Shown here piece after piece: positions 1 to 64,000 of a stretch of 64,000 nucleotides of DNA. The stretch comes from Escherichia coli O127:H6 str. E2348/69 (GTDB lineage Bacteria; Pseudomonadota; Gammaproteobacteria; Enterobacterales; Enterobacteriaceae), in assembly GCF_000026545.1 (NCBI RefSeq), contig NC_011601.1; one strand, written 5' to 3'. How positions within the stretch are numbered: the first letter of the stretch is position 1; each line of letters begins with the position of its first letter. The translations under genes and the position numbers were made by a program. The notes under the pieces were generated by a model. The model was not told the DNA's origin, ran no database searches, and saw nothing but the letters and a program-made list of their open reading frames with translations.

Positions 1-112
1 TTCCGGAAAGCTTTCAGCTTTGAGCCAGTTATTAAAACCCCTTTTGATTTGTTAAAACACCTTGCGGTCTGGCAACTGCAAGTGTCAAACAAGAAATCAA
101 AAGGGGGTCCCA

Positions 113-571
113 ATGGGGAACGAAAAGAGCTTAGCGCACACCCGATGGAACTGTAAATATCACATAGTATTTGCGCCAAAATACCGAAGACAGGTGTTCT
201 ACAGAGAGAAGCGTAGAGCAATAGGCTGTATTTTGAGAAAGCTGTGTGAGTGGAAAAGTGTACGGATTCTGGAAGCTGAATGCTGTGCAGATCATATCCA
301 TATGCTTGTGGAGATCCCGCCCAAAATGAGCGTATCCGGCTTTATGGGATATCTGAAAGGGAAAAGCAGTCTGATGCTTTACGAGCAGTTTGGTGATTTG
401 AAATTCAAGTACAGGAACAGGGAGTTCTGGTGCAGAGGGTATTACGTCGATACGGTGGGTAAGAACACGGCGAAGATACAGGATTACATAAAGCACCAGC
501 TTGAAGAGGATAAAATGGGAGAGCAGTTATCGATTCCCTATCCGGGCAGCCCGTTTACGGGCCGTAAGTAA
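113..571 (+). CDS. tnpA: IS200 transposase TnpA (Y1 HuH transposase), 152 aa
   Basis: Translation MGNEKSLAHTRWNCKYHIVFAPKYRR...HIHMLVEIPPK... closely matches Salmonella/E. coli IS200 TnpA as I recall it. The ATG at 113 gives the expected length. Confidence 0.9.
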   Translation: MGNEKSLAHTRWNCKYHIVFAPKYRRQVFYREKRRAIGCILRKLCEWKSVRILEAECCADHIHMLVEIPPKMSVSGFMGYLKGKSSLMLYEQFGDLKFKYRNREFWCRGYYVDTVGKNTAKIQDYIKHQLEEDKMGEQLSIPYPGSPFTGRK

Positions 572-39495: not shown

Positions 39496-40533
39496 ATGTT
39501 TTCCGCATTGCGCCACCGTACCGCTGCCCTGGCGCTCGGCGTATGCTTTATTCTCCCCGTACACGCCTCGTCACCTAAACCTGGCGATTTTGCTAATACC
39601 CAGGCACGACATATTGCTACTTTCTTTCCGGGACGCATGACCGGAACTCCTGCAGAAATGTTATCTGCCGATTATATTCGCCAACAGTTTCAGCAAATGG
39701 GTTATCGCAGTGATATTCGGACATTTAATAGTCGGTATATTTATACCGCCCGCGATAATCGCAAGAGCTGGCATAACGTGACGGGAAGTACGGTGATTGC
39801 CGCTCATGAAGGCAAAGCGCCGCAGCAGATCATCATTATGGCGCATCTGGATACTTACGCCCCGCTGAGCGATGCTGACGCCGATGCCAATCTCGGCGGG
39901 CTAACGTTACAAGGAATGGATGATAACGCCGCAGGTTTAGGTGTCATGCTGGAACTGGCTGAACGCCTGAAAAATACGCCTACCGAGTATGGTATTCGAT
40001 TTGTGGCGACCAGCGGCGAAGAGGAAGGAAAATTAGGCGCTGAGAATTTACTCAAGCGGATGAGTGACACCGAAAAGAAAAATACGCTGCTGGTGATTAA
40101 TCTCGATAACTTAATTGTTGGCGATAAGCTGTATTTCAACAGTGGCGTAAAAACACCTGAAGCAGTAAGGAAATTAACGCGCGACCGGGCGCTGGCAATT
40201 GCCCGCAGCCATGGAATTGCCGCCACCACAAATCCAGGTTTGAATAAAAACTATCCGAAAGGCACCGGGTGTTGTAATGACGCAGAAATATTCGACAAAG
40301 CCGGTATTGCTGTACTTTCGGTGGAAGCGACTAACTGGAATCTTGGCAATAAGGATGGTTATCAGCAACGCGCAAAAACAGCCGCATTCCCTGCAGGAAA
40401 TAGCTGGCATGACGTAAGACTGGATAATCAACAGCATATTGATAAGGCACTTCCTGGAAGAATAGAACGCCGCTGCCGTGATGTTATGCGGATAATGCTA
40501 CCGCTGGTGAAGGAGCTGGCGAAGGCATCTTAA
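39496..40533 (+). CDS. iap: Alkaline phosphatase isozyme conversion aminopeptidase Iap
   Basis: 345 aa, signal peptide and M28-family peptidase motifs. Confidence 0.9.
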   Translation: MFSALRHRTAALALGVCFILPVHASSPKPGDFANTQARHIATFFPGRMTGTPAEMLSADYIRQQFQQMGYRSDIRTFNSRYIYTARDNRKSWHNVTGSTVIAAHEGKAPQQIIIMAHLDTYAPLSDADADANLGGLTLQGMDDNAAGLGVMLELAERLKNTPTEYGIRFVATSGEEEGKLGAENLLKRMSDTEKKNTLLVINLDNLIVGDKLYFNSGVKTPEAVRKLTRDRALAIARSHGIAATTNPGLNKNYPKGTGCCNDAEIFDKAGIAVLSVEATNWNLGNKDGYQQRAKTAAFPAGNSWHDVRLDNQQHIDKALPGRIERRCRDVMRIMLPLVKELAKAS

Positions 40534-40632
40534 TGGGTTTGAAATGATTACTCCCTTGCCTGCAGGAAATCAATGCCACCAGAAACAGAGTATAAAAAAG
40601 GGTGCAGGAGACCAAACCATCACAATTCAGTA

Positions 40633-40651
40633 CGCGGGGTTTTACCCCGCG
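40633..40651 (-). terminator. Stem-loop (cgcgggg-tttta-ccccgcg) immediately 3' of the hok pseudogene
   Basis: 7-bp perfect stem read from the sequence, located just after the hok stop codon on the minus strand. Confidence 0.4.
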
Positions 40652-40657
40652 TGGTGG

Positions 40658-40809
40658 CTACTTCTTCGATTCGTAAGCGAGAACTGCCTTAAACTCCATA
40701 CCACGTTCTCTGATACTCAACTCACACAACGAGTCGCCTACCATCAACGTGAATCCCAGTACTGTACAACACAGTACGATGATTGCCACAAGGGCATATT
40801 TTGTCAGCA
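40658..40809 (-). pseudogene. hok: hok-family (HokE-like) type I toxin gene, inactivated by a 1-nt deletion
   Basis: Minus-strand translation [23 protein letters not shown] then a stop, followed out of frame by [26 protein letters not shown], which matches the Hok/Gef family (Hok[15 protein letters not shown]...LVGDSLCEF...[12 protein letters not shown], from memory). Restoring one G in 'atg(g)tagg' gives an intact 50-aa ORF. Confidence 0.7.
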
Positions 40810-40828
40810 TGTCTGTGTAAGTTCACAG

Positions 40829-41900
40829 AGATATTGCAATTGCCTCCGGATAAGTAAGGGGAGATTGCACTATGCAAATGCAGCATCTGATGGTTGGCTA
40901 TCCTAAGTACTACCAAACGGCCGATTATGCGTTGAGGCTTTCAGTGATGGCTGATATAGCAACAATGAGAATGAAGGCTCTGCACTTCTGGGATAAACAC
41001 GGTATTTCTGCAGCTTCTGAAGCCTTTGGCGTGTCCTGCCGCACGCTTTACTGGTGGCGTCAGTTACTGAACAAGGAAGGACCTGAGGGGCTAATCCCGC
41101 ACAGTAAGGCACCTCTGGTGCGACGAAAAAAACACTGGCATCCCGATGTGCTGAAAGAGATTCGACGCCTCAGGACAGAGCTGCCGAACCTCGGTAAAGA
41201 GCAGATTTTTGTTCGCCTGAAGCCCTGGTGCGAACAGCGCTATCTGGCCTGTCCGAGTGTTTCCACCATCGGCAGAATGATCGCTGCCGCACATGATAAA
41301 ATGCGGATGATACCTGTGCGTCTGGGATCGCGGGGGAAGGCACTGCTTGTCAAAAAGCGGTCTGCCAAACCCCGCAGGCCAAAGCACTACCGCCCGGTAA
41401 AGACAGGTGAGCTCATTGGGATGGACGCCATTGAGCTCAGAATGGGCGAACTGCGTCGCTATGTCATCACCATGATCGACGAATGCAGCAATTACGCGCT
41501 GGCGCTGGCTGTGCCGTCACTCAACAGTGATATCGTCAATCACTTCTTCAGCCGCGCAGCCCGGTTGTTCCCGGTCGGTATCAGCCAGATAATCACAGAT
41601 AACGGAAAAGAGTTCCTGGGAAACTTCGACAAAACGCTGCAGGAAGCCGCTATCAAACACCTCTGGACCTATCCCTACACGCCAAAAATGAACGCTATCT
41701 GTGAACGTTTTAACCGGACGTTAAGAGAGCAGTTTATTGAATTTAATGAGATTTTACTCTTTGAAGATCTGGCGCTATTTAACCAGAAGCTGGCGGAATA
41801 TCTGGTGCTGTATAACAGCAAAAGACCCCACAAGGCGCTCGCACTAATGACGCCCGTGGAATATATTTTAAAAGAGAATAAAAATTGCAATATGTGGTGG
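40829..41900 (+). mobile_element. Approximate extent of an IS481-family-like insertion sequence; boundaries tentative
   Basis: Single DDE (rve) transposase ORF. Candidate terminal inverted repeats 'atattgcaatt' at the left (about 40829) and its reverse complement within 'aaaaattgcaatatg' at about 41886-41900. No clean target-site duplication was found. Confidence 0.4.
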
Positions 41901-42146
41901 ACCCATACAATGTCTTGCCTCCTTGCAAAGAAGAGACTAACATCCGAATTGCTTAGGTTCGAACGTAGGCCTCAGGTTGATAGAAATATCGCCTGGGGCT
42001 TTTGTCCATCTGGAACCTCGCGAATGCTTAACGCCAGACAGCCTCAAGCACCCAACGCCATTCTATACCTGTTAATTTTCCCTGCGATGTTCACCTTTAA
42101 ATGCCGGAATGCTGCTCGCAAAATAAAAACGCCCCATCATTTCTGA
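40872..42146 (+). CDS. DDE-type (rve/integrase core) transposase with N-terminal HTH, IS481-family-like
   Basis: HTH (ISAASEAFGVSCRTLYWWRQ), DDE residues in GMDAIE / ITDNGKEF / ERFNRTLRE, and C-terminal KRPHKALALMTPVEY. The last ~80 codons of the 424-aa ORF may be read-through into flanking DNA. Confidence 0.7.
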   Translation: MQMQHLMVGYPKYYQTADYALRLSVMADIATMRMKALHFWDKHGISAASEAFGVSCRTLYWWRQLLNKEGPEGLIPHSKAPLVRRKKHWHPDVLKEIRRLRTELPNLGKEQIFVRLKPWCEQRYLACPSVSTIGRMIAAAHDKMRMIPVRLGSRGKALLVKKRSAKPRRPKHYRPVKTGELIGMDAIELRMGELRRYVITMIDECSNYALALAVPSLNSDIVNHFFSRAARLFPVGISQIITDNGKEFLGNFDKTLQEAAIKHLWTYPYTPKMNAICERFNRTLREQFIEFNEILLFEDLALFNQKLAEYLVLYNSKRPHKALALMTPVEYILKENKNCNMWWTHTMSCLLAKKRLTSELLRFERRPQVDRNIAWGFCPSGTSRMLNARQPQAPNAILYLLIFPAMFTFKCRNAARKIKTPHHF

Positions 42147-42174
42147 CAGAGGCGTTTAATTTATCCGGCAATAT

Positions 42175-42909
42175 TTACCCTTCGTGTAATCCACATTCCC
42201 TTTTTAAGCCAAAGAAACGCGTTTCTTCTTCCGCCATGCCGGGTTCCCATTTACGGGTTGTATGGGTATCGCCCACCGATAAATATCCTTCATCCCATAA
42301 TGGGTGATATTTCAGGCCATGTTTTTGCAGGTACTGATAAATAGTTCGGTTATCCCAGTCGATAATCGGCAGCACTTTAAATACGCCACGCTGAATTGCC
42401 AGCACCGGTAAATTGGCGCGACTGCCGGATTGTTCACGGCGCAGGCCAGCAAACCAGGTTTGCGCATTCAGTTCTTTCAGCGCCCGGTTCATCGGTTCGA
42501 CTTTGTTGATGTCATTGTACTTTTCAATGCCTTCAACGCCCTGCTCCCACAGTTTGCCGTAGCGTGCTTCCTGCCAGGCGGCGCTTTCGGTAGCACGATA
42601 CACTTTCAGGTTGAGCTTGAGTTTGTCCGTTAACTCGTCAATAAAGCGGTAGGTTTCCGGGAACAGATAGCCGGTATCGGTGAGGATCACTGGAATATCC
42701 GGGCGAATCTGATTCACCAGATGCAGACTCACCGCCGCCTGAATGCCAAAGCTGGAAGAAAGTACATATTCACCGGGCAGATTATCCAGCGCCCAGGCTA
42801 CGCGGCCTTCAGCGTCCAGTTTTTCCAGTTGGGCGTTAGTTTCCGCCAGCGCCAGAATCCGGTCTACCTTTGGCAGTTCGTTCAGGGCGTTTAGATCGAG
42901 TTTGGACAT
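42175..42909 (-). CDS. cysH: Phosphoadenosine phosphosulfate reductase (244 aa)
   Basis: Conserved [21 protein letters not shown] start; the longer six-frame ORF runs through a REP element and was rejected. Confidence 0.95.
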
Positions 42910-58133: not shown

Positions 58134-59054
58134 ATGAGCGCAAGAGTATGGGTACTCGGTGATGCGGTTGTTGATTTATTACCCGAAAGCCAGGGGAGAC
58201 TACTACAGTGTCCTGGCGGGGCGCCTGCTAATGTTGCAGTCGGTATCGCAAGGCTGGGGGGGAAAAGTGCCTTTATTGGCAAAGTTGGCGATGATCCTTT
58301 CGGTCGCTTTATGTATCAGACACTGAGTACAGAAAATGTTGATACACGTTATATGTCTCTTGATCCTCAACAACGCACCTCAATTGTGGCTGTAGGACTT
58401 GATGAGCAAGGAGAAAGAAACTTTACCTTTATGGTACGCCCAAGTGCCGATCTTTTTTTACAACCTGATGACCTTCCTACATTTGGGCCGGGTGAATGGC
58501 TCCATCTTTGTTCCATTGCGCTCAGTGCAGAACCTTCCCGAAGTACCGCATTTCTGGCTATGGAGAAAATACGTCAGGCTGGCGGAAACATCAGTTTTGA
58601 TCCCAATATCCGCAGCGATCTCTGGCAGAGTGAAGCGCTATTAAGAAAATACCTTGATCGCGCGCTTTCGCTGGCGAATATCGCTAAATTGTCCGAAGAA
58701 GAGTTGCTATTCATCAGTGGCGAAAGCCAGGTTCAGCAAGGCGCATATTCATTAGTACAACGTTATTCGTTGACTTTATTGCTTATCACACAAGGAAAAA
58801 ATGGCGTACTTGTGTATTTTCAGGGGCAGTTTATCCACTATCCCGCCAAACCTGTTTCTGTCGTCGATACGACCGGGGCAGGAGATGCTTTTGTCGCTGG
58901 ATTACTTGCAGGTCTGGCTGATTCTGGAATACCAACAAATACCAGACAGCTTGAACGAATCATTGCACAAGCTCAGATTTGTGGTGCTCTGGCGACCACG
59001 GCTAAAGGCGCGATGACCGCCTTACCCCGACAACACGATCTCCCTTCACAATAG
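58134..59054 (+). CDS. scrK: Fructokinase (PfkB family) ScrK
   Basis: 306 aa; VLGDAVVDLLPE...LLQCPGGAPANVAVG...DTTGAGDAFVAGLLAGL is highly similar to enterobacterial ScrK. Confidence 0.85.
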   Translation: MSARVWVLGDAVVDLLPESQGRLLQCPGGAPANVAVGIARLGGKSAFIGKVGDDPFGRFMYQTLSTENVDTRYMSLDPQQRTSIVAVGLDEQGERNFTFMVRPSADLFLQPDDLPTFGPGEWLHLCSIALSAEPSRSTAFLAMEKIRQAGGNISFDPNIRSDLWQSEALLRKYLDRALSLANIAKLSEEELLFISGESQVQQGAYSLVQRYSLTLLLITQGKNGVLVYFQGQFIHYPAKPVSVVDTTGAGDAFVAGLLAGLADSGIPTNTRQLERIIAQAQICGALATTAKGAMTALPRQHDLPSQ

Positions 59055-59085
59055 TGATCCTGCTGTTGTATCTGTAACCCGATTT

Positions 59086-59101
59086 GTCGTGCCTGTCACA
59101 T
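59086..59101. promoter_or_regulatory. Candidate CRP site upstream of scrY
   Basis: TGTCGtgcctgTCACA has one perfect half-site and one imperfect half-site with correct spacing. Confidence 0.3.
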
Positions 59102-59104
59102 TTA

Positions 59105-59118
59105 CTAAATCGGTTTAG
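59105..59118. promoter_or_regulatory. Candidate ScrR operator (near-perfect palindrome) upstream of scrY
   Basis: ctaaatcggtttag, a 14-bp palindrome with one mismatch. Confidence 0.4.
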
Positions 59119-59163
59119 CGAAAATAATTGCTCTGGCTAAAAAGTCAGCTTTATTATCAACAC

Positions 59164-59177
59164 CTAAACCGGTTTAG
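59164..59177. promoter_or_regulatory. Candidate ScrR operator (perfect 14-bp palindrome) upstream of scrY
   Basis: ctaaaccggtttag is perfectly self-complementary and lies about 45 bp upstream of the scrY start. Confidence 0.45.
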
Positions 59178-59197
59178 CATTTTAGCAATTTTTATAA

Positions 59198-60739
<1,542 letters not shown>

Positions 60740-60747
60740 TACCAGAC

Positions 60748-60770
60748 AGCCTCACGGATGTGAGGCTTTT
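60748..60770 (+). terminator. Intercistronic hairpin plus T-tract between scrY and scrA (possible partial terminator / attenuator)
   Basis: agcctcac-ggat-gtgaggct followed by ttt. Confidence 0.4.
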
Positions 60771-60799
60771 ACTGAAATAACAATGAATTAGAGGGTTAT

Positions 60800-62170
60800 A
60801 TGGATTTCGATAAAATCGCCCAATCGTTGCTTCCTTTATTAGGTGGTAAGGAGAACATCGCCAGTGCAGCACATTGCGCCACTCGCCTACGGCTGGTACT
60901 GGTTGACGACACACTTGCCGATCAACATGCCATTGGCCAGATTGATGGAGTGAAAGGTTGTTTTCGTAATTCAGGGCAAATGCAAATCATCTTTGGCACC
61001 GGCGTGGTTAATAAAGTCTATGCTGCCTTTATTCAGGTTGCAGGTATTAGCGAATCCAGTAAAGCAGATACCGCTCGACTCGCCGCTCAAAAACTCAATC
61101 CTTTTCAGCGAATAGCACGGCTACTTTCTAATATTTTTGTCCCCATCATTCCAGCCATTGTTGCTTCTGGTTTATTAATGGGGCTCCTGGGAATGGTGAA
61201 AACATATGGCTGGGTGAATGCCGATAATGCGATTTATATCCTGCTGGATATGTGCAGTTCAGCCGCATTTATTATTCTCCCCATCCTTATTGGCTTTACT
61301 GCTGCTCGTGAATTTGGTGGAAATCCTTATCTTGGCGCGACATTAGGAGGGATTCTGACTCACCCGGCACTCACAAATGCCTGGGGCGTTGCTGCGGGAT
61401 TTCAGACAATGAACTTCTTCGGTTTTGAAATCGCCATGATTGGCTATCAGGGAACGGTTTTCCCCGTGCTTCTGGCAGTATGGTTTATGAGCATAGTGGA
61501 AAAACAGTTACGCAGGTTTATCCCTGATGCTCTGGATCTCATTCTGACGCCATTTCTGACTGTCGTCATTTCTGGCTTTATCGCTCTTTTGATTATTGGT
61601 CCGGCAGGACGAGCGTTAGGTGACGGTATCTCTTTCGTTCTCAGCACGCTGATTGCACACGCAGGCTGGTTAGCAGGGTTGTTATTCGGCGGGCTATATT
61701 CAGCGATTGTTATTACGGGTATTCATCATAGCTTCCACGCAATTGAAGCAGGACTTTTAGGTAACCCTGCAATCGGTGTTAATTTCCTGCTGCCTATTTG
61801 GGCAATGGCAAACGTTGCGCAAGGAGGTGCATGTCTGGCGGTATGGTTTAAAACCAAAGATACAAAAATTAAAGCAATCACCCTACCCTCGGCCTTTTCC
61901 GCAATGTTAGGGATTACTGAAGCCGCTATTTTTGGTATCAACCTTCGTTTTGTTAAACCTTTTATTGCGGCCTTAATTGGTGGCGCTGCCGGCGGTGCCT
62001 GGGTTGTCTCTGTTCACGTTTATATGACTGCCGTTGGTCTGACCGCAATACCCGGCATGGCAATCGTTCAGCCAACATCGTTGGTTAATTATATTATTGG
62101 AATGGTGATTGCTTTCGCTGTCGCTTTTAGCCTCTCTTTATTACTCAAATACAAAACGGACGAGGAGTAA
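60800..62170 (+). CDS. scrA: PTS sucrose-specific EIIBC component ScrA (456 aa)
   Basis: N-terminal EIIB cysteine motif (AAHCATRLR) followed by a glucose-family EIIC membrane domain. Confidence 0.9.
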   Translation: MDFDKIAQSLLPLLGGKENIASAAHCATRLRLVLVDDTLADQHAIGQIDGVKGCFRNSGQMQIIFGTGVVNKVYAAFIQVAGISESSKADTARLAAQKLNPFQRIARLLSNIFVPIIPAIVASGLLMGLLGMVKTYGWVNADNAIYILLDMCSSAAFIILPILIGFTAAREFGGNPYLGATLGGILTHPALTNAWGVAAGFQTMNFFGFEIAMIGYQGTVFPVLLAVWFMSIVEKQLRRFIPDALDLILTPFLTVVISGFIALLIIGPAGRALGDGISFVLSTLIAHAGWLAGLLFGGLYSAIVITGIHHSFHAIEAGLLGNPAIGVNFLLPIWAMANVAQGGACLAVWFKTKDTKIKAITLPSAFSAMLGITEAAIFGINLRFVKPFIAALIGGAAGGAWVVSVHVYMTAVGLTAIPGMAIVQPTSLVNYIIGMVIAFAVAFSLSLLLKYKTDEE

Positions 62171-63579
62171 TGTCGATGCCTTCACAAATGCCCGCGATTT
62201 TACAGGCAGTGATGAAAGGTCAGTCCAAAGCACTGGCAGATGCCCACTATCCTTGTTGGCATCTCGCTCCAGTCACCGGACTAATGAACGATCCAAATGG
62301 CTTTTGTTGGTCTGGAGGCCGCTATCATCTGTTTTATCAATGGAATCCACTGGCTTGTGATCATAAGTACAAATGTTGGGGGCACTGGAGTTCGACGGAT
62401 TTATTGCACTGGCAGCATGAACCATTAGCGCTAATGCCCGATAAAGAGTACGACCGTAATGGTTGTTACTCAGGAAGCGCGGTTAATAATCAGGGCGTTC
62501 TCACACTTTGCTATACCGGTAATGTTAAGTTTGATGATGGCAGCAGAACGGCATGGCAATGCCTGGCCACCGAAAATAACCAGGGCGGGTTTGATAAACT
62601 AGGCCCTGTCATACCGTTACCTGATGGTTACACCGGACATGTTCGTGATCCAAAAGTCTGGAAGCACAACAGCCAATGGTACATGGTGCTTGGCGCGCAA
62701 GATAAAGAGAAACGGGGGAAAGTGCTGCTGTATTCCTCTGTCGATCTCTATACCTGGTCTTTTCATGGAGAAATTGCTGGTAACGGTCTGAATGAAATAG
62801 ATAACGCAGGATACATGTGGGAATGTCCTGATCTTTTCGCCCTTGATGGTGAATACATTCTCCTCTGTTGCCCCCAGGGAATGGTGCGCGAACATGAGCG
62901 CTATCTGAATACTTATCCCTGCGCCTGGCTACATGGACAGTTTGATTACGAGACAGGCAAATTTACGCATGGCGCTTTCTCAGAGCTGGATGCGGGATTT
63001 GAATTCTATGCACCACAGACGATGGAAGCCCCGGACGGGCGACGATTGCTGGTCGGCTGGATGGGGGTTCCTGATGGCGAAGAGATGTTGCAGCCAACCA
63101 GAAAGCATCATTGGCAGCATCAAATGACCTGTTTTCGCGAACTCTCATTCCAGAAGGGAAAATTGTTTCAGATGCCAATCAGGGAACTCGCGCAACTGCG
63201 TGAAGCTGAACACTTCTGGCAAGGAAAAGCGGATCATGCGCCGCATGTCGAAATTGAACGCCTGGAAATGGACATCATTCCGTCGGGTGAGCTGTATCTG
63301 AATTTTGGCAATGCGCTGGCACTGCATCTTAATGACGATGGTATTCAACTACAGAGGAGAAGCCTTGCAGGGCAAGAGAAACTAACTCGTTACTGGCGAG
63401 GAAGCGTAACGTCACTGAAGATTCTCTGTGACAGTTCCAGCGTAGAGATATTCATCAATAATGGTGAAGGTGTAATGAGTAATCGTTATTTTCCCCATCA
63501 TCCAGCTTCGCTGATATTACAGGGTGAGTCTGACGTCACGTTACGCTACTGGTCGCTACGCGCCTGCATGGTAGAATGA
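62170..63579 (+). CDS. scrB: Sucrose-6-phosphate hydrolase (GH32) ScrB
   Basis: 469-aa ORF with GH32 motifs (NDPNG, RDPKV, EC); start overlaps the scrA stop. Confidence 0.9.
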
Positions 63580-63604
63580 GGGTTTTGAATTACGGATCCT
63601 CGTC

Positions 63605-64000
63605 GTGAGAAAAACCAAACGCGTTACTATTAAAGACATTGCTGAACTGGCGGGAGTGTCGAAAGCAACCGCCAGTCTGGTTCTCAATGGTCGTGGCAAA
63701 GAGTTACGTGTTGCGCAGGAAACGCGTGAGCGTGTGCTGAGTATTGCCCAACAGCAGCATTATCAGCCCAGCATTCATGCCCGCTCATTACGGGACAACC
63801 GCAGTCATACCATTGGTCTCGTCGTTCCTGAAATCACTAACTACGGATTTGCAGTATTTTCCCATGAACTGGAAACATTGTGTCGGGAAGCGGGCGTCCA
63901 GCTCCTCATATCCTGTACTGATGAAAATCCTTCACAGGAAACAATGGTGGTGAACAATATGATTGCCCGCCAGGTTGATGGGTTAATCGTCGCATCCAGT
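63605..64000 (+). CDS. scrR: LacI-family sucrose operon repressor ScrR, 5' part (continues beyond the window)
   Basis: GTG start; [29 protein letters not shown]... is a classic LacI-type HTH. Truncated by the window end. Confidence 0.8.

Follow-up and report, generated by a model that had tools for sequence, protein, structure and literature searches.

In Escherichia coli K-12 the interval between iap and cysH houses a type I-E CRISPR-Cas locus. What occupies this interval in E. coli O127:H6 str. E2348/69, and does it replace the CRISPR-Cas genes or normally stand beside them? The initial annotation of the 64-kb stretch of DNA analysed here (the window) described an interval devoid of the I-E system that held a frameshifted hok-family gene and an IS481-like transposase in its stead. 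Our analysis supports, with a probability of about 0.9, a reading in which the interval is the published CRISPR-less form of CRISPR-I plus a 1096-bp IS481-family insertion that splits the hok/sok locus.

Results

The interval is bounded on the left by iap (39496-40533, plus strand), an open reading frame (ORF) of 345 aa, and on the right by cysH (42175-42909, minus strand), both so named in the E2348/69 annotation. It spans 1641 bp (40534-42174), in agreement with the distance of ~1.6 kb originally given, and is wholly explained by the iap-hok junction, hok, the insertion sequence (IS) and the sok region. In related strains free of the IS the interval measures 543 bp with the order iap-hok-cysH. 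Towards cysH, a terminator scan places the cysH (cysJIH) terminator hairpin at 42132-42151 on the minus strand, and the cysH-F primer of Almendros et al. has an exact match at 42111-42131.

The genes cas3, cse1, cse2, cas7, cas5, cas6e, cas1 and cas2 are all missing between iap and cysH, and no array of 29-nt type 2 repeats with ~32-nt spacers lies beside iap. With up to three mismatches allowed, a search of all 64 kb of the window gave no match to the I-E repeat, whose best ungapped match within the interval carries 11/27 mismatches. Tandem Repeats Finder returned no array in the window, and the interval holds neither a cas remnant nor a degenerate repeat. The reported lack of I-E repeats is thereby borne out, as is the comparison with K-12 on which it drew. 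K-12 MG1655 has the same flanking genes and a homologous sokX region (94.9% identity over 395 nt, aligned with the ncRNA sokX b4701), while its iap-cysH interval contains an array and eight cas-E2 genes that are gone in E2348/69, and its hok ORF is lost. The window takes in the two I-E sites of the chromosome, both of them empty, and the literature searched yielded nothing on other CRISPR arrays in E2348/69.

The CRISPR-less layout is already known and has been published since at least 2014. Almendros et al. (2014; mBio 5:e00767-13, PMC3903273) described an arrangement B, in which the whole cassette is missing and hok sok is kept, and an arrangement C, which adds to B a later insertion, the uncharacterised ISu, in the intergenic region adjoining cysH, at its cysH-distal end. 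The E2348/69 interval is arrangement C, assigned by match to that description. It shares with arrangements B and C the iap and cysH flanks, the lack of array, leader and cas-E genes and the presence of hok sok, with no structural difference. Its iap-hok junction recurs in about a fifth of complete E. coli genomes (1123 of 5426); this frequency and the published record uphold the proposal that this is an alternative, CRISPR-less form of a known variable locus.

Alignment against O103:H2 delimits the iap-hok junction of the CRISPR-less allele to 40534-40592. The first 11 bp (to 40544) are common to CRISPR-positive strains and are followed by 48 bp specific to the CRISPR-less allele (40545-40592); homology to O103:H2 ends at 40544 and restarts at 40593. 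A vestigial repeat within the 48 bp was considered and rejected, since its alignment scores are no better than those of shuffled sequences. This holds against the canonical repeat on both strands and the iap-proximal degenerate repeat and spacer, and equally against the whole arrays, leaders and cas3-hok spacers of O103:H2 and K-12. The 48 bp are not derivable from the two CRISPR-positive alleles compared (O103:H2 and K-12). A simple deletion would not make such a sequence, and its lack of a detectable counterpart in either the E1-type (O103:H2) or the E2-type (K-12) allele speaks for the CRISPR-less allele being an ancestral empty site that gained the I-E cassette by insertion in other lineages, with no deletion involved. 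We consider this origin unlikely, if still worth weighing, given that the most parsimonious route inferred by Almendros et al. (2014; PMC3903273) starts with arrangement A and deletes the IG6-IG3 region, and that the 48 bp could be the remnant of an older, unsampled allele. A search with an exact 20-mer from the 48 bp across 100,044 species genomes gave three chance matches in unrelated taxa and none in Escherichia; with the 20-mer absent from the Escherichia species representatives, outgroups lend support neither way.

Whichever way the allele arose, hok/sok belongs beside the CRISPR-Cas cassette and is no substitute for it, because the module is present beyond cas3 in O103:H2 and persists as a sokX remnant in K-12. 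In O103:H2 PV16-126 the order runs iap, a full array, cas2 to cas3 (eight cas genes), hok, IS, sok region and cysH, with the same hok ORF and with the IS at the same nucleotide as in E2348/69. This cas-E1 strain and E2348/69 thus have in common the Hok protein, the nucleotide of IS insertion, the target-site duplication and the cysH neighbour, and differ by the 9.6-kb array and cas cassette between iap and hok of O103:H2. In K-12 the order is cas3, sokX, cysH. The initial statement that hok and the IS are found instead of CRISPR-Cas is therefore incorrect. A 2025 survey also places hok/sokX beside cysH, whether or not the strain has cas genes (PMC12736100). Homology of K-12 to the window begins at 41905, and this position, no more than 5 nt from the right end of the IS, suggests that the deletion of hok in K-12 ended at an ISu copy.

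The IS itself occupies 40814-41909 on the plus strand and is 1096 bp long with TGT...ACA ends, as delimited by its inverted repeats and by breakpoints relative to IS-free strains. The terminal inverted repeats are ~28 bp and imperfect, with a perfect 11-nt core (40831-40841 and 41883-41893). Its transposase ORF (40872-42146, plus strand) runs for 346 codons within the element, which provides no stop, and reads a further 78 codons into the flank, giving a protein of 424 aa here against 362 aa for the identical copy at hokD. The transposase matches NCBIfam NF033577 (IS481) over 2-283/284 with 220.8 bits (E 2.5e-65), just under the cut-off of 224, and has the Pfam domains rve, rve_3, HTH_32 and HTH_28; RefSeq calls the identical copies 'IS481 family transposase', with no ISfinder-derived name. 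The assignment as IS481-like is well founded on the NCBIfam score and the rve and HTH domains. The element is flanked by the target-site duplication ATGTC, with the left copy (40809-40813) overlapping, on the opposite strand, the AT of the hok start codon and the right copy at 41910-41914, and the insertion point lies 3 nt upstream of the hok start codon. The empty site in S8 and A13 has a single ATGTC. Duplications of 5 bp were also found at 10 metagenomic sites, where they were read by eye from the junctions, and at six of six complete-genome copies; target duplications across the IS481 family span 2-15 bp (PMC10045372).

Copies with 100% identity occur at hokX, hokD and hokA, upstream of AgrB, at fabR-sthA and on plasmids, with up to 38 places in one genome and four in E2348/69. 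At the hok site between iap and cysH the IS is present in only 33 of the 5426 complete genomes. Between E2348/69 and O103:H2 the IS has no differences over 1096 nt, compared with 17 in 266 nt of the sok-side flank and 25 in 735 nt of cysH. The spread of a single IS-bearing allele by recombination was rejected on two grounds: an identical IS sits between flanks that differ by 3-7%, and most genomes of both backgrounds are without the IS. Judged from these sequences, the IS arrived separately and later and is rare at this site; its insertion would be a recent and independent event by an active element. The possibility that hok is cargo of the IS was likewise rejected, as the Hok ORFs differ, each has its own matching leader across the IS, and every insertion has its own 5-bp duplication.

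The right copy of the duplicated 5 bp directly adjoins the -35 box of the putative sokX promoter (41915-41943, plus strand), which by sequence reading and scoring consists of TTGCCT (41915-41920), a 17-bp spacer and a -10 box TAACAT (41938-41943). This placement agrees with the sokX start annotated in K-12, whose counterpart in the window is position 41951. Of 47 distinct sites, 25 have TTG after the 5-bp duplication, where a fraction of 1/64 would be expected, as do all six sampled complete-genome copies, and the TTG located 5 bp from the IS is usually a sigma-70 -35 box. Orientation of the IS is the same in nine of nine Rfam-confirmed hok cases, two diverged backgrounds share both the base of insertion and the orientation, and the same geometry is seen at non-toxin sites such as fabR-sthA. 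The promoters of antitoxin RNAs in type I toxin loci (sok, agrB) are often hit. The IS may owe its position to favouring the 5 bp that precede a TTG -35 box, in this case the -35 box of the sok promoter.

In its general form, this IS and its 75%-identical ISKpn28-like relatives may be promoter-seeking elements that insert in a fixed orientation, leaving exactly 5 bp between the right end and a downstream sigma-70 -35 box (TTGNNN, 17-bp spacer, -10). Their favourite targets would be the constitutive antitoxin-RNA promoters of type I toxin-antitoxin loci, with the toxin cut from its leader and the antitoxin spared. The targets that point to such behaviour are the sok promoters of at least 10 different hok loci and agrB of the dinQ-like locus in E2348/69. 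We put this forward tentatively, at somewhat less than even odds. It may be new, as searches of the literature for IS481 or ISKpn28 together with hok, and for IS481 target rules, found nothing relevant and no description of it. A competing explanation is that the IS is found at hok only through selection for, or tolerance of, toxin-disarming insertions, with no choice of site. Pedersen and Gerdes reportedly observed in 1999 that hokA, hokC and hokE of K-12 are flanked by the unrelated IS150 and IS186, which counts for selection. Durrant et al. (bioRxiv 527788) report that hok/sok homologues of E. coli and K. pneumoniae lie near hotspots of mobile-element insertion, and suggested that the disruption is adaptive. 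Selection, however, leaves unexplained the nucleotide precision with which the same base and orientation recur in two diverged backgrounds, the excess of TTG in both sets of sites, the uniform orientation at hok loci and the equivalent geometry at the non-toxin fabR-sthA site, and as a sole cause it seems improbable.

The hok gene disconnected by this insertion is not degraded. The hokX toxin ORF (40658-40810, minus strand) has 50 uninterrupted codons and matches Pfam HOK_GEF over its full length (1-42/42, E 6.3e-10); its NCBIfam HokA score is 53 bits, under the cut-off of 89, though Pfam, Rfam and RefSeq concur on the Hok and IS481 identities. The RefSeq entry, WP_000956458.1, is an ordinary CDS with no pseudogene flag, and the accession is shared with IS-free strains, in which the protein is identical. 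That hok is a frameshifted pseudogene, as first annotated, is refuted by the sequence. The impression of decay may stem from the short upstream ORFs and from an ACG at the mok-start position. What is broken is the hok locus as a whole, with the reading frame spared.

Downstream of the ORF, the 3' untranslated end of the hokX mRNA (40593-40657, minus strand), whose first position is exactly where homology with CRISPR-positive strains begins, comprises a hairpin and an fbi-like segment in the minimum free energy (MFE) fold of the reconstructed RNA. In that predicted fold of the IS-free transcript, nt 2-15 (tac) pair with nt 341-354 (fbi). Across the IS lies the hokX mRNA leader with its Sok target region and Shine-Dalgarno AGGAGG (41904-42053, minus strand), recognised by alignment with other hok leaders and by Rfam RF01794 sok (104.6 bits, gathering score 59, full model). 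The 1096-bp IS and the 5-bp duplication separate the Shine-Dalgarno from the ATG; leader and ORF are no longer contiguous and stand 1.1 kb apart. The sokX antitoxin RNA gene (41951-42009, plus strand) and its promoter are unbroken by the IS.

The insertion therefore leaves the intact hok ORF and the 3' fold-back segment on one side, and the hok promoter, leader, Shine-Dalgarno and Sok target together with the full sokX promoter and gene on the other. hok is predicted to be without transcription from its own promoter, and also without translation, because the Shine-Dalgarno site is gone from the ORF. A consensus scan, which is weak evidence on this point, found no outward promoter at the left end of the IS directed toward hok. 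The toxin would thus be disarmed while Sok RNA is probably still made, and from this architecture we infer that hok is silent and sokX active in E2348/69. In the reconstructed locus the ORFs upstream of or overlapping the hok start are only 12 and 18 codons long, and where R1-like loci have their mok start the alignment shows ACG. Since there is no mok-like ORF of more than 18 codons, translation of hokX may be poor even in the absence of the IS.

That the short interval is an assembly artefact in which a CRISPR-Cas region has collapsed can be dismissed, as three independent E2348/69 assemblies are 100% identical to the window over 1901 nt, nine other genomes have the same iap-hok/IS layout and the IS-less junction occurs in 1123 genomes, so that the contig is sound.

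Discussion

Our results extend the published description of this locus. The ISu of arrangement C is an IS481-family element of 1096 bp that generates a 5-bp duplication and splits hok from its Shine-Dalgarno and leader, and it is identical in CRISPR-less and CRISPR-positive backgrounds while the flanks have diverged. Among IS481-family elements, ISKpn28 is ~75% identical to it in DNA sequence from end to end, matches it without a difference in the 27-nt right end, has the same 5-bp duplication and takes up the same position in hok loci, although at 75% identity it is a distinct element. The chromosomal hok loci of K-12 are said by Pedersen and Gerdes, writing in 1999, to be inactivated by IS elements near, not inside, the reading frame. 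At E2348/69 hokX an IS likewise disconnects hok from its regulatory region, but the K-12 elements are IS150 and IS186, whereas here it is an IS481-family element whose position with respect to the sok promoter is fixed.

As first written, the finding carries little weight, given that the absence of the I-E system from a large share of E. coli at this locus, with hok/sok beside cysH and sometimes with an IS, has been known since at least 2014. Its value lies in the correction that hok is intact, that the locus is split by an IS and that hok/sok neighbours the cassette. If the IS does seek promoters, it would follow an unusual rule of target choice, 5 bp upstream of a -35 box and in fixed orientation, and would provide a mechanistic cause for the repeated disarming of hok-type toxins. 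Such a preference would also explain why hok loci are mobile-element hotspots, and would account for where deletions at this locus end, as in K-12, which lost hok.

The iap-cysH interval of E2348/69

The 1641 bp between the end of iap (40533, plus strand) and the end of cysH (42175, minus strand) lack a type I-E CRISPR-Cas system, as the initial annotation had proposed, and every base pair can be assigned to a part. A 59-bp iap-hok junction (40534-40592) is followed by the 3' end of the hok transcript (40593-40657), an intact hok ORF of 50 codons on the minus strand (40658-40810), a 1096-bp insertion sequence (IS; 40814-41909) flanked by the 5-bp duplication ATGTC (40809-40813 and 41910-41914), and the hok leader with its antisense sok gene (41904-42053, minus strand; Rfam RF01794, 104.6 bits against a gathering score of 59). 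The remaining part comprises the hok promoter region and the cysH terminator. Neither a mismatch search, ungapped matching, comparison with shuffled sequence nor Tandem Repeats Finder detected I-E repeats within 40534-42174. Allowing up to three mismatches, the repeat matches nowhere in the whole 64-kb window, its best ungapped match within the interval carries mismatches at 11 of 27 positions, and Tandem Repeats Finder found no array in the window. In CRISPR-positive strains the sequence past iap enters a degenerate terminal repeat. Homology of the window to these strains ends at 40544, 11 nt past the iap stop codon, and restarts at 40593; the intervening 48 bp (40545-40592) resemble the repeat, the degenerate repeat, arrays, leaders and cas3-hok spacers no better than shuffles do. 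Misassembly is excluded because three EPEC E2348/69 (O127:H6) assemblies are 100% identical across 40400-42300 and nine further genomes share the layout. The second I-E array site, beyond ygcE (CRISPR2.2-3 in K-12; window 58134-64000), also has no repeats, so both I-E sites are empty in E2348/69. From ygcE to the window end lie genes of the sucrose-utilisation type, for a kinase, a porin, a PTS IIBC component, a sucrose-6-phosphate hydrolase and a LacI-type regulator. An array-less second site is described as common in a 2025 survey (PMC12736100).

Two details of the initial annotation do not survive. The hok gene, described there as frameshifted, has an uninterrupted ORF matching Pfam HOK_GEF across the whole model, and RefSeq treats it as an ordinary CDS (WP_000956458.1), with the same accession in IS-free and in CRISPR-positive strains. 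Nor do hok and the IS stand in place of CRISPR-Cas, since the O103:H2 strain PV16-126 carries them together with an array and cas genes, in the order iap, CRISPR array, cas2 to cas3, hok, IS, cysH, and the K-12 order is iap, array, cas2 to cas3, sokX, cysH. These gene orders identify hok/sok as the resident neighbour of cysH; strains that have the CRISPR-Cas cassette carry it with iap on one side and the hok 3' end on the other. In their survey of the locus, Almendros et al. (2014; PMC3903273) distinguished nine iap-cysH arrangements and found hok sok in all strains but carriers of the cas-E2 (K-12) variant, and the 2025 survey places hok and sokX beside cysH in 90% of urinary isolates, with or without cas genes (PMC12736100). 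Judged by the description of Almendros et al., whose primer for the cysH-side region matches 42111-42131, the window fits their arrangement C, in which the cassette is absent, hok sok is kept and the IS is present. The proposal of an alternative, CRISPR-less form of a known variable locus is thus borne out: the CRISPR-less iap-hok junction occurs in 1123 of 5426 complete genomes, the feature is real and correctly located, and its layout is already described in these two surveys. Normally this junction belongs to an IS-free iap-hok-cysH interval of 543 bp. The IS at the hokX site is rare (33 genomes); among the matches listed, 12 of 30 such genomes have the CRISPR-less junction, and in the remaining 18 the match begins about 60-100 bp beyond iap, the one examined having hok adjoining cas3.

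Probable consequences of the insertion for hokX/sokX

When the IS and one copy of the duplication are removed in silico, the minus strand reads ...TTTGCAAGGAGGCAAGACATGCTGACA... and the reconstructed locus has a Shine-Dalgarno sequence, AGGAGG, 6 nt before the hok ATG. In the predicted fold of the reconstructed 362-nt RNA, nt 2-15 at the 5' end pair with nt 341-354 at the 3' end. Such long-range tac-fbi pairing, known from hok/sok of plasmid R1, is typical of hok mRNAs. The IS lies between the Shine-Dalgarno site and the ATG, leaving the hok ORF and the 3' pairing segment 1.1 kb from the promoter, leader, Shine-Dalgarno site and Sok target region. The sokX gene (41951-42009, strand opposite hok), placed by alignment with the annotated K-12 sRNA, has a predicted promoter (-35 TTGCCT, 41915-41920; -10 TAACAT, 41938-41943) that starts directly after the duplicated 5 bp and is therefore untouched by the IS. 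From this arrangement we infer that Hok would no longer be made while Sok RNA would still be. No long mok frame runs over hokX in the reconstructed locus; the only ORFs that precede or overlap the hok start have 12 and 18 codons, and where R1-like loci have their mok start, the alignment shows ACG (window 41915-42010 and 40811-40813, minus strand). Lacking a long mok frame, hokX may already have been poorly translatable without the IS.

The insertion sequence and the history of the locus

Set against the IS-free strains S8 and A13, the IS has its breakpoints at 40813/40814 and 41909/41910, and ATGTC is the duplicated sequence. The element has TGT...ACA termini within imperfect inverted repeats of about 28 bp that share a perfect 11-nt core. 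Its lone ORF encodes an IS481-family transposase, in agreement with the initial annotation, matching NCBIfam NF033577 over its full length (220.8 bits, just missing the cut-off of 224) and the Pfam domains rve, rve_3 and HTH. The ORF (40872-42146) meets no stop inside the IS and, after 346 internal codons, reads through into the flank, so that the C-terminal tail is set by the insertion site (424 aa in the window versus 362 aa in an identical copy at hokD). This read-through explains the RefSeq label 'incomplete, missing C-terminus' on the window copy; RefSeq is inconsistent here, naming identical copies elsewhere 'IS481 family transposase'. The IS is mobile: 146 records contain copies at 99% identity or above, one genome has it in as many as 38 places, and E2348/69 has it in four. 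Many chromosomes carry older variants (about 93-94% identity) fixed at galF-yegH, and frameshifted copies adjoin iss and iroB on large plasmids; of the 1118 records with 90-95% identity, most are explained by these two groups. An IS200/IS605-type TnpA ORF (62-571, plus strand) lies at the window start, preceded by an Rfam STnc490 match (1-103, 108.5 bits) that the window edge truncates; STnc490 is also matched in two plasmid-type loci (L120, L093).

The IS copies at hokX in E2348/69 and O103:H2 show 0 differences in 1096 nt, whereas the adjoining sok flank differs at 17 of 266 nt and cysH at 25 of 735. The nearest relatives of the E2348/69 flanks are other CRISPR-less strains, and the IS is absent from most genomes of either the CRISPR-less or the CRISPR-positive background. 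The simplest reading of these alignments is that the IS recently inserted twice, independently, at one and the same nucleotide. For the CRISPR-less state itself, the 48 allele-specific bp (40545-40592) have no detectable counterpart in the alleles compared (E1- and E2-type) and do not follow from a simple deletion of these, which would suit an old empty site; a 20-mer from them gave no useful match in a scan of species representative genomes. Deletion is the origin argued by Almendros et al. (PMC3903273), and we consider an old empty site less likely. A further role for the IS is suggested by K-12, in which homology on the sok side begins at window 41905 (13307 in the K-12 locus, L005), at most 5 nt from the IS right end, and reads ATACACATGTCTTGCC. 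The hok loss thus seems to end at a former IS copy, which fits the model of Almendros et al. (PMC3903273), in which the K-12 lineage is proposed to have lost hok through an IS.

A possible target preference of the insertion sequence

The identical copy adjoining hokD in another strain has the same orientation and its own 5-bp duplication. Scanning metagenomes with the 27-nt IS right end returned at least 120 loci (L010-L129), and the target-choice sample combines the matches listed, which fall into 47 distinct right-flank classes, with a handful of genomes. Among the matches listed, a hok locus adjoins the IS in 17 of the 47 classes, as judged by an Rfam sok abutting the IS end (seven representatives), a leader profile (11 classes) and Hok ORFs directly past the IS left end (ten). 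Certain classes derive from one locus by rearrangement, and at least 10 different hok loci are involved. Two elements occur at such sites, the window-type IS and an ISKpn28-like IS that is 75% identical to it and shares its right end, and orientation is identical in all nine Rfam-confirmed hok cases.

At the right end, TTG follows the 5 bp in 25 of the 47 classes among the matches listed, versus 1/64 expected (p = 7e-33), and in all six identical copies drawn from complete genomes, every one of which has a perfect 5-bp duplication. A -10-like hexamer lies 16-18 bp (nearly always 17) past TTGNNN at 16 of the 31 TTG sites in this sample compared with 2.9% of all window TTG (p = 2.5e-16), a count in which the mutually homologous hok sites are not independent; of the 16 distinct non-hok sites in the sample, eight still qualify by our count. 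The sok promoters of hokX, hokD, hokA, R1-like and other hok loci are hit repeatedly, as is agrB. A second identical copy in E2348/69 (L133, E2348/69 variety 2, NZ_LT827011.1 486108-488603) lies between annotated dinQ, a type I toxin gene, and the AgrB RNA (Rfam RF02891, 53.6 bits versus a gathering score of 40), where the IS end is followed by 5 bp, TTGAAT, 17 bp, TATAAT and, 7 nt later, the AgrB start. A non-toxin target is found just upstream of sthA. Two distinct ISKpn28-like insertions in metagenome contigs (L017, L019) are separated by 12 nt from the beginning of an Rfam STnc100 match; here too the duplication is followed by TTG, as TTGAAA.

The frequency of hok sites, the constant orientation, the TTG and -10 context and the AgrB and sthA sites together suggest that the IS enters in one orientation, 5 bp upstream of the -35 box of sigma-70 promoters, frequently those of antitoxin RNAs. 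Selection may add to the enrichment at these sites. Durrant et al. (bioRxiv 527788) reported that hok/sok genes lie close to insertion hotspots and put forward adaptive disruption as the explanation; our literature search found no paper linking these hotspots either to the IS481 family or to a rule on promoters, and the targeting lead may be new to the literature. The CRISPR-less interval as first noted is of little interest, and this possible targeting rule is the sole part that might repay more work.
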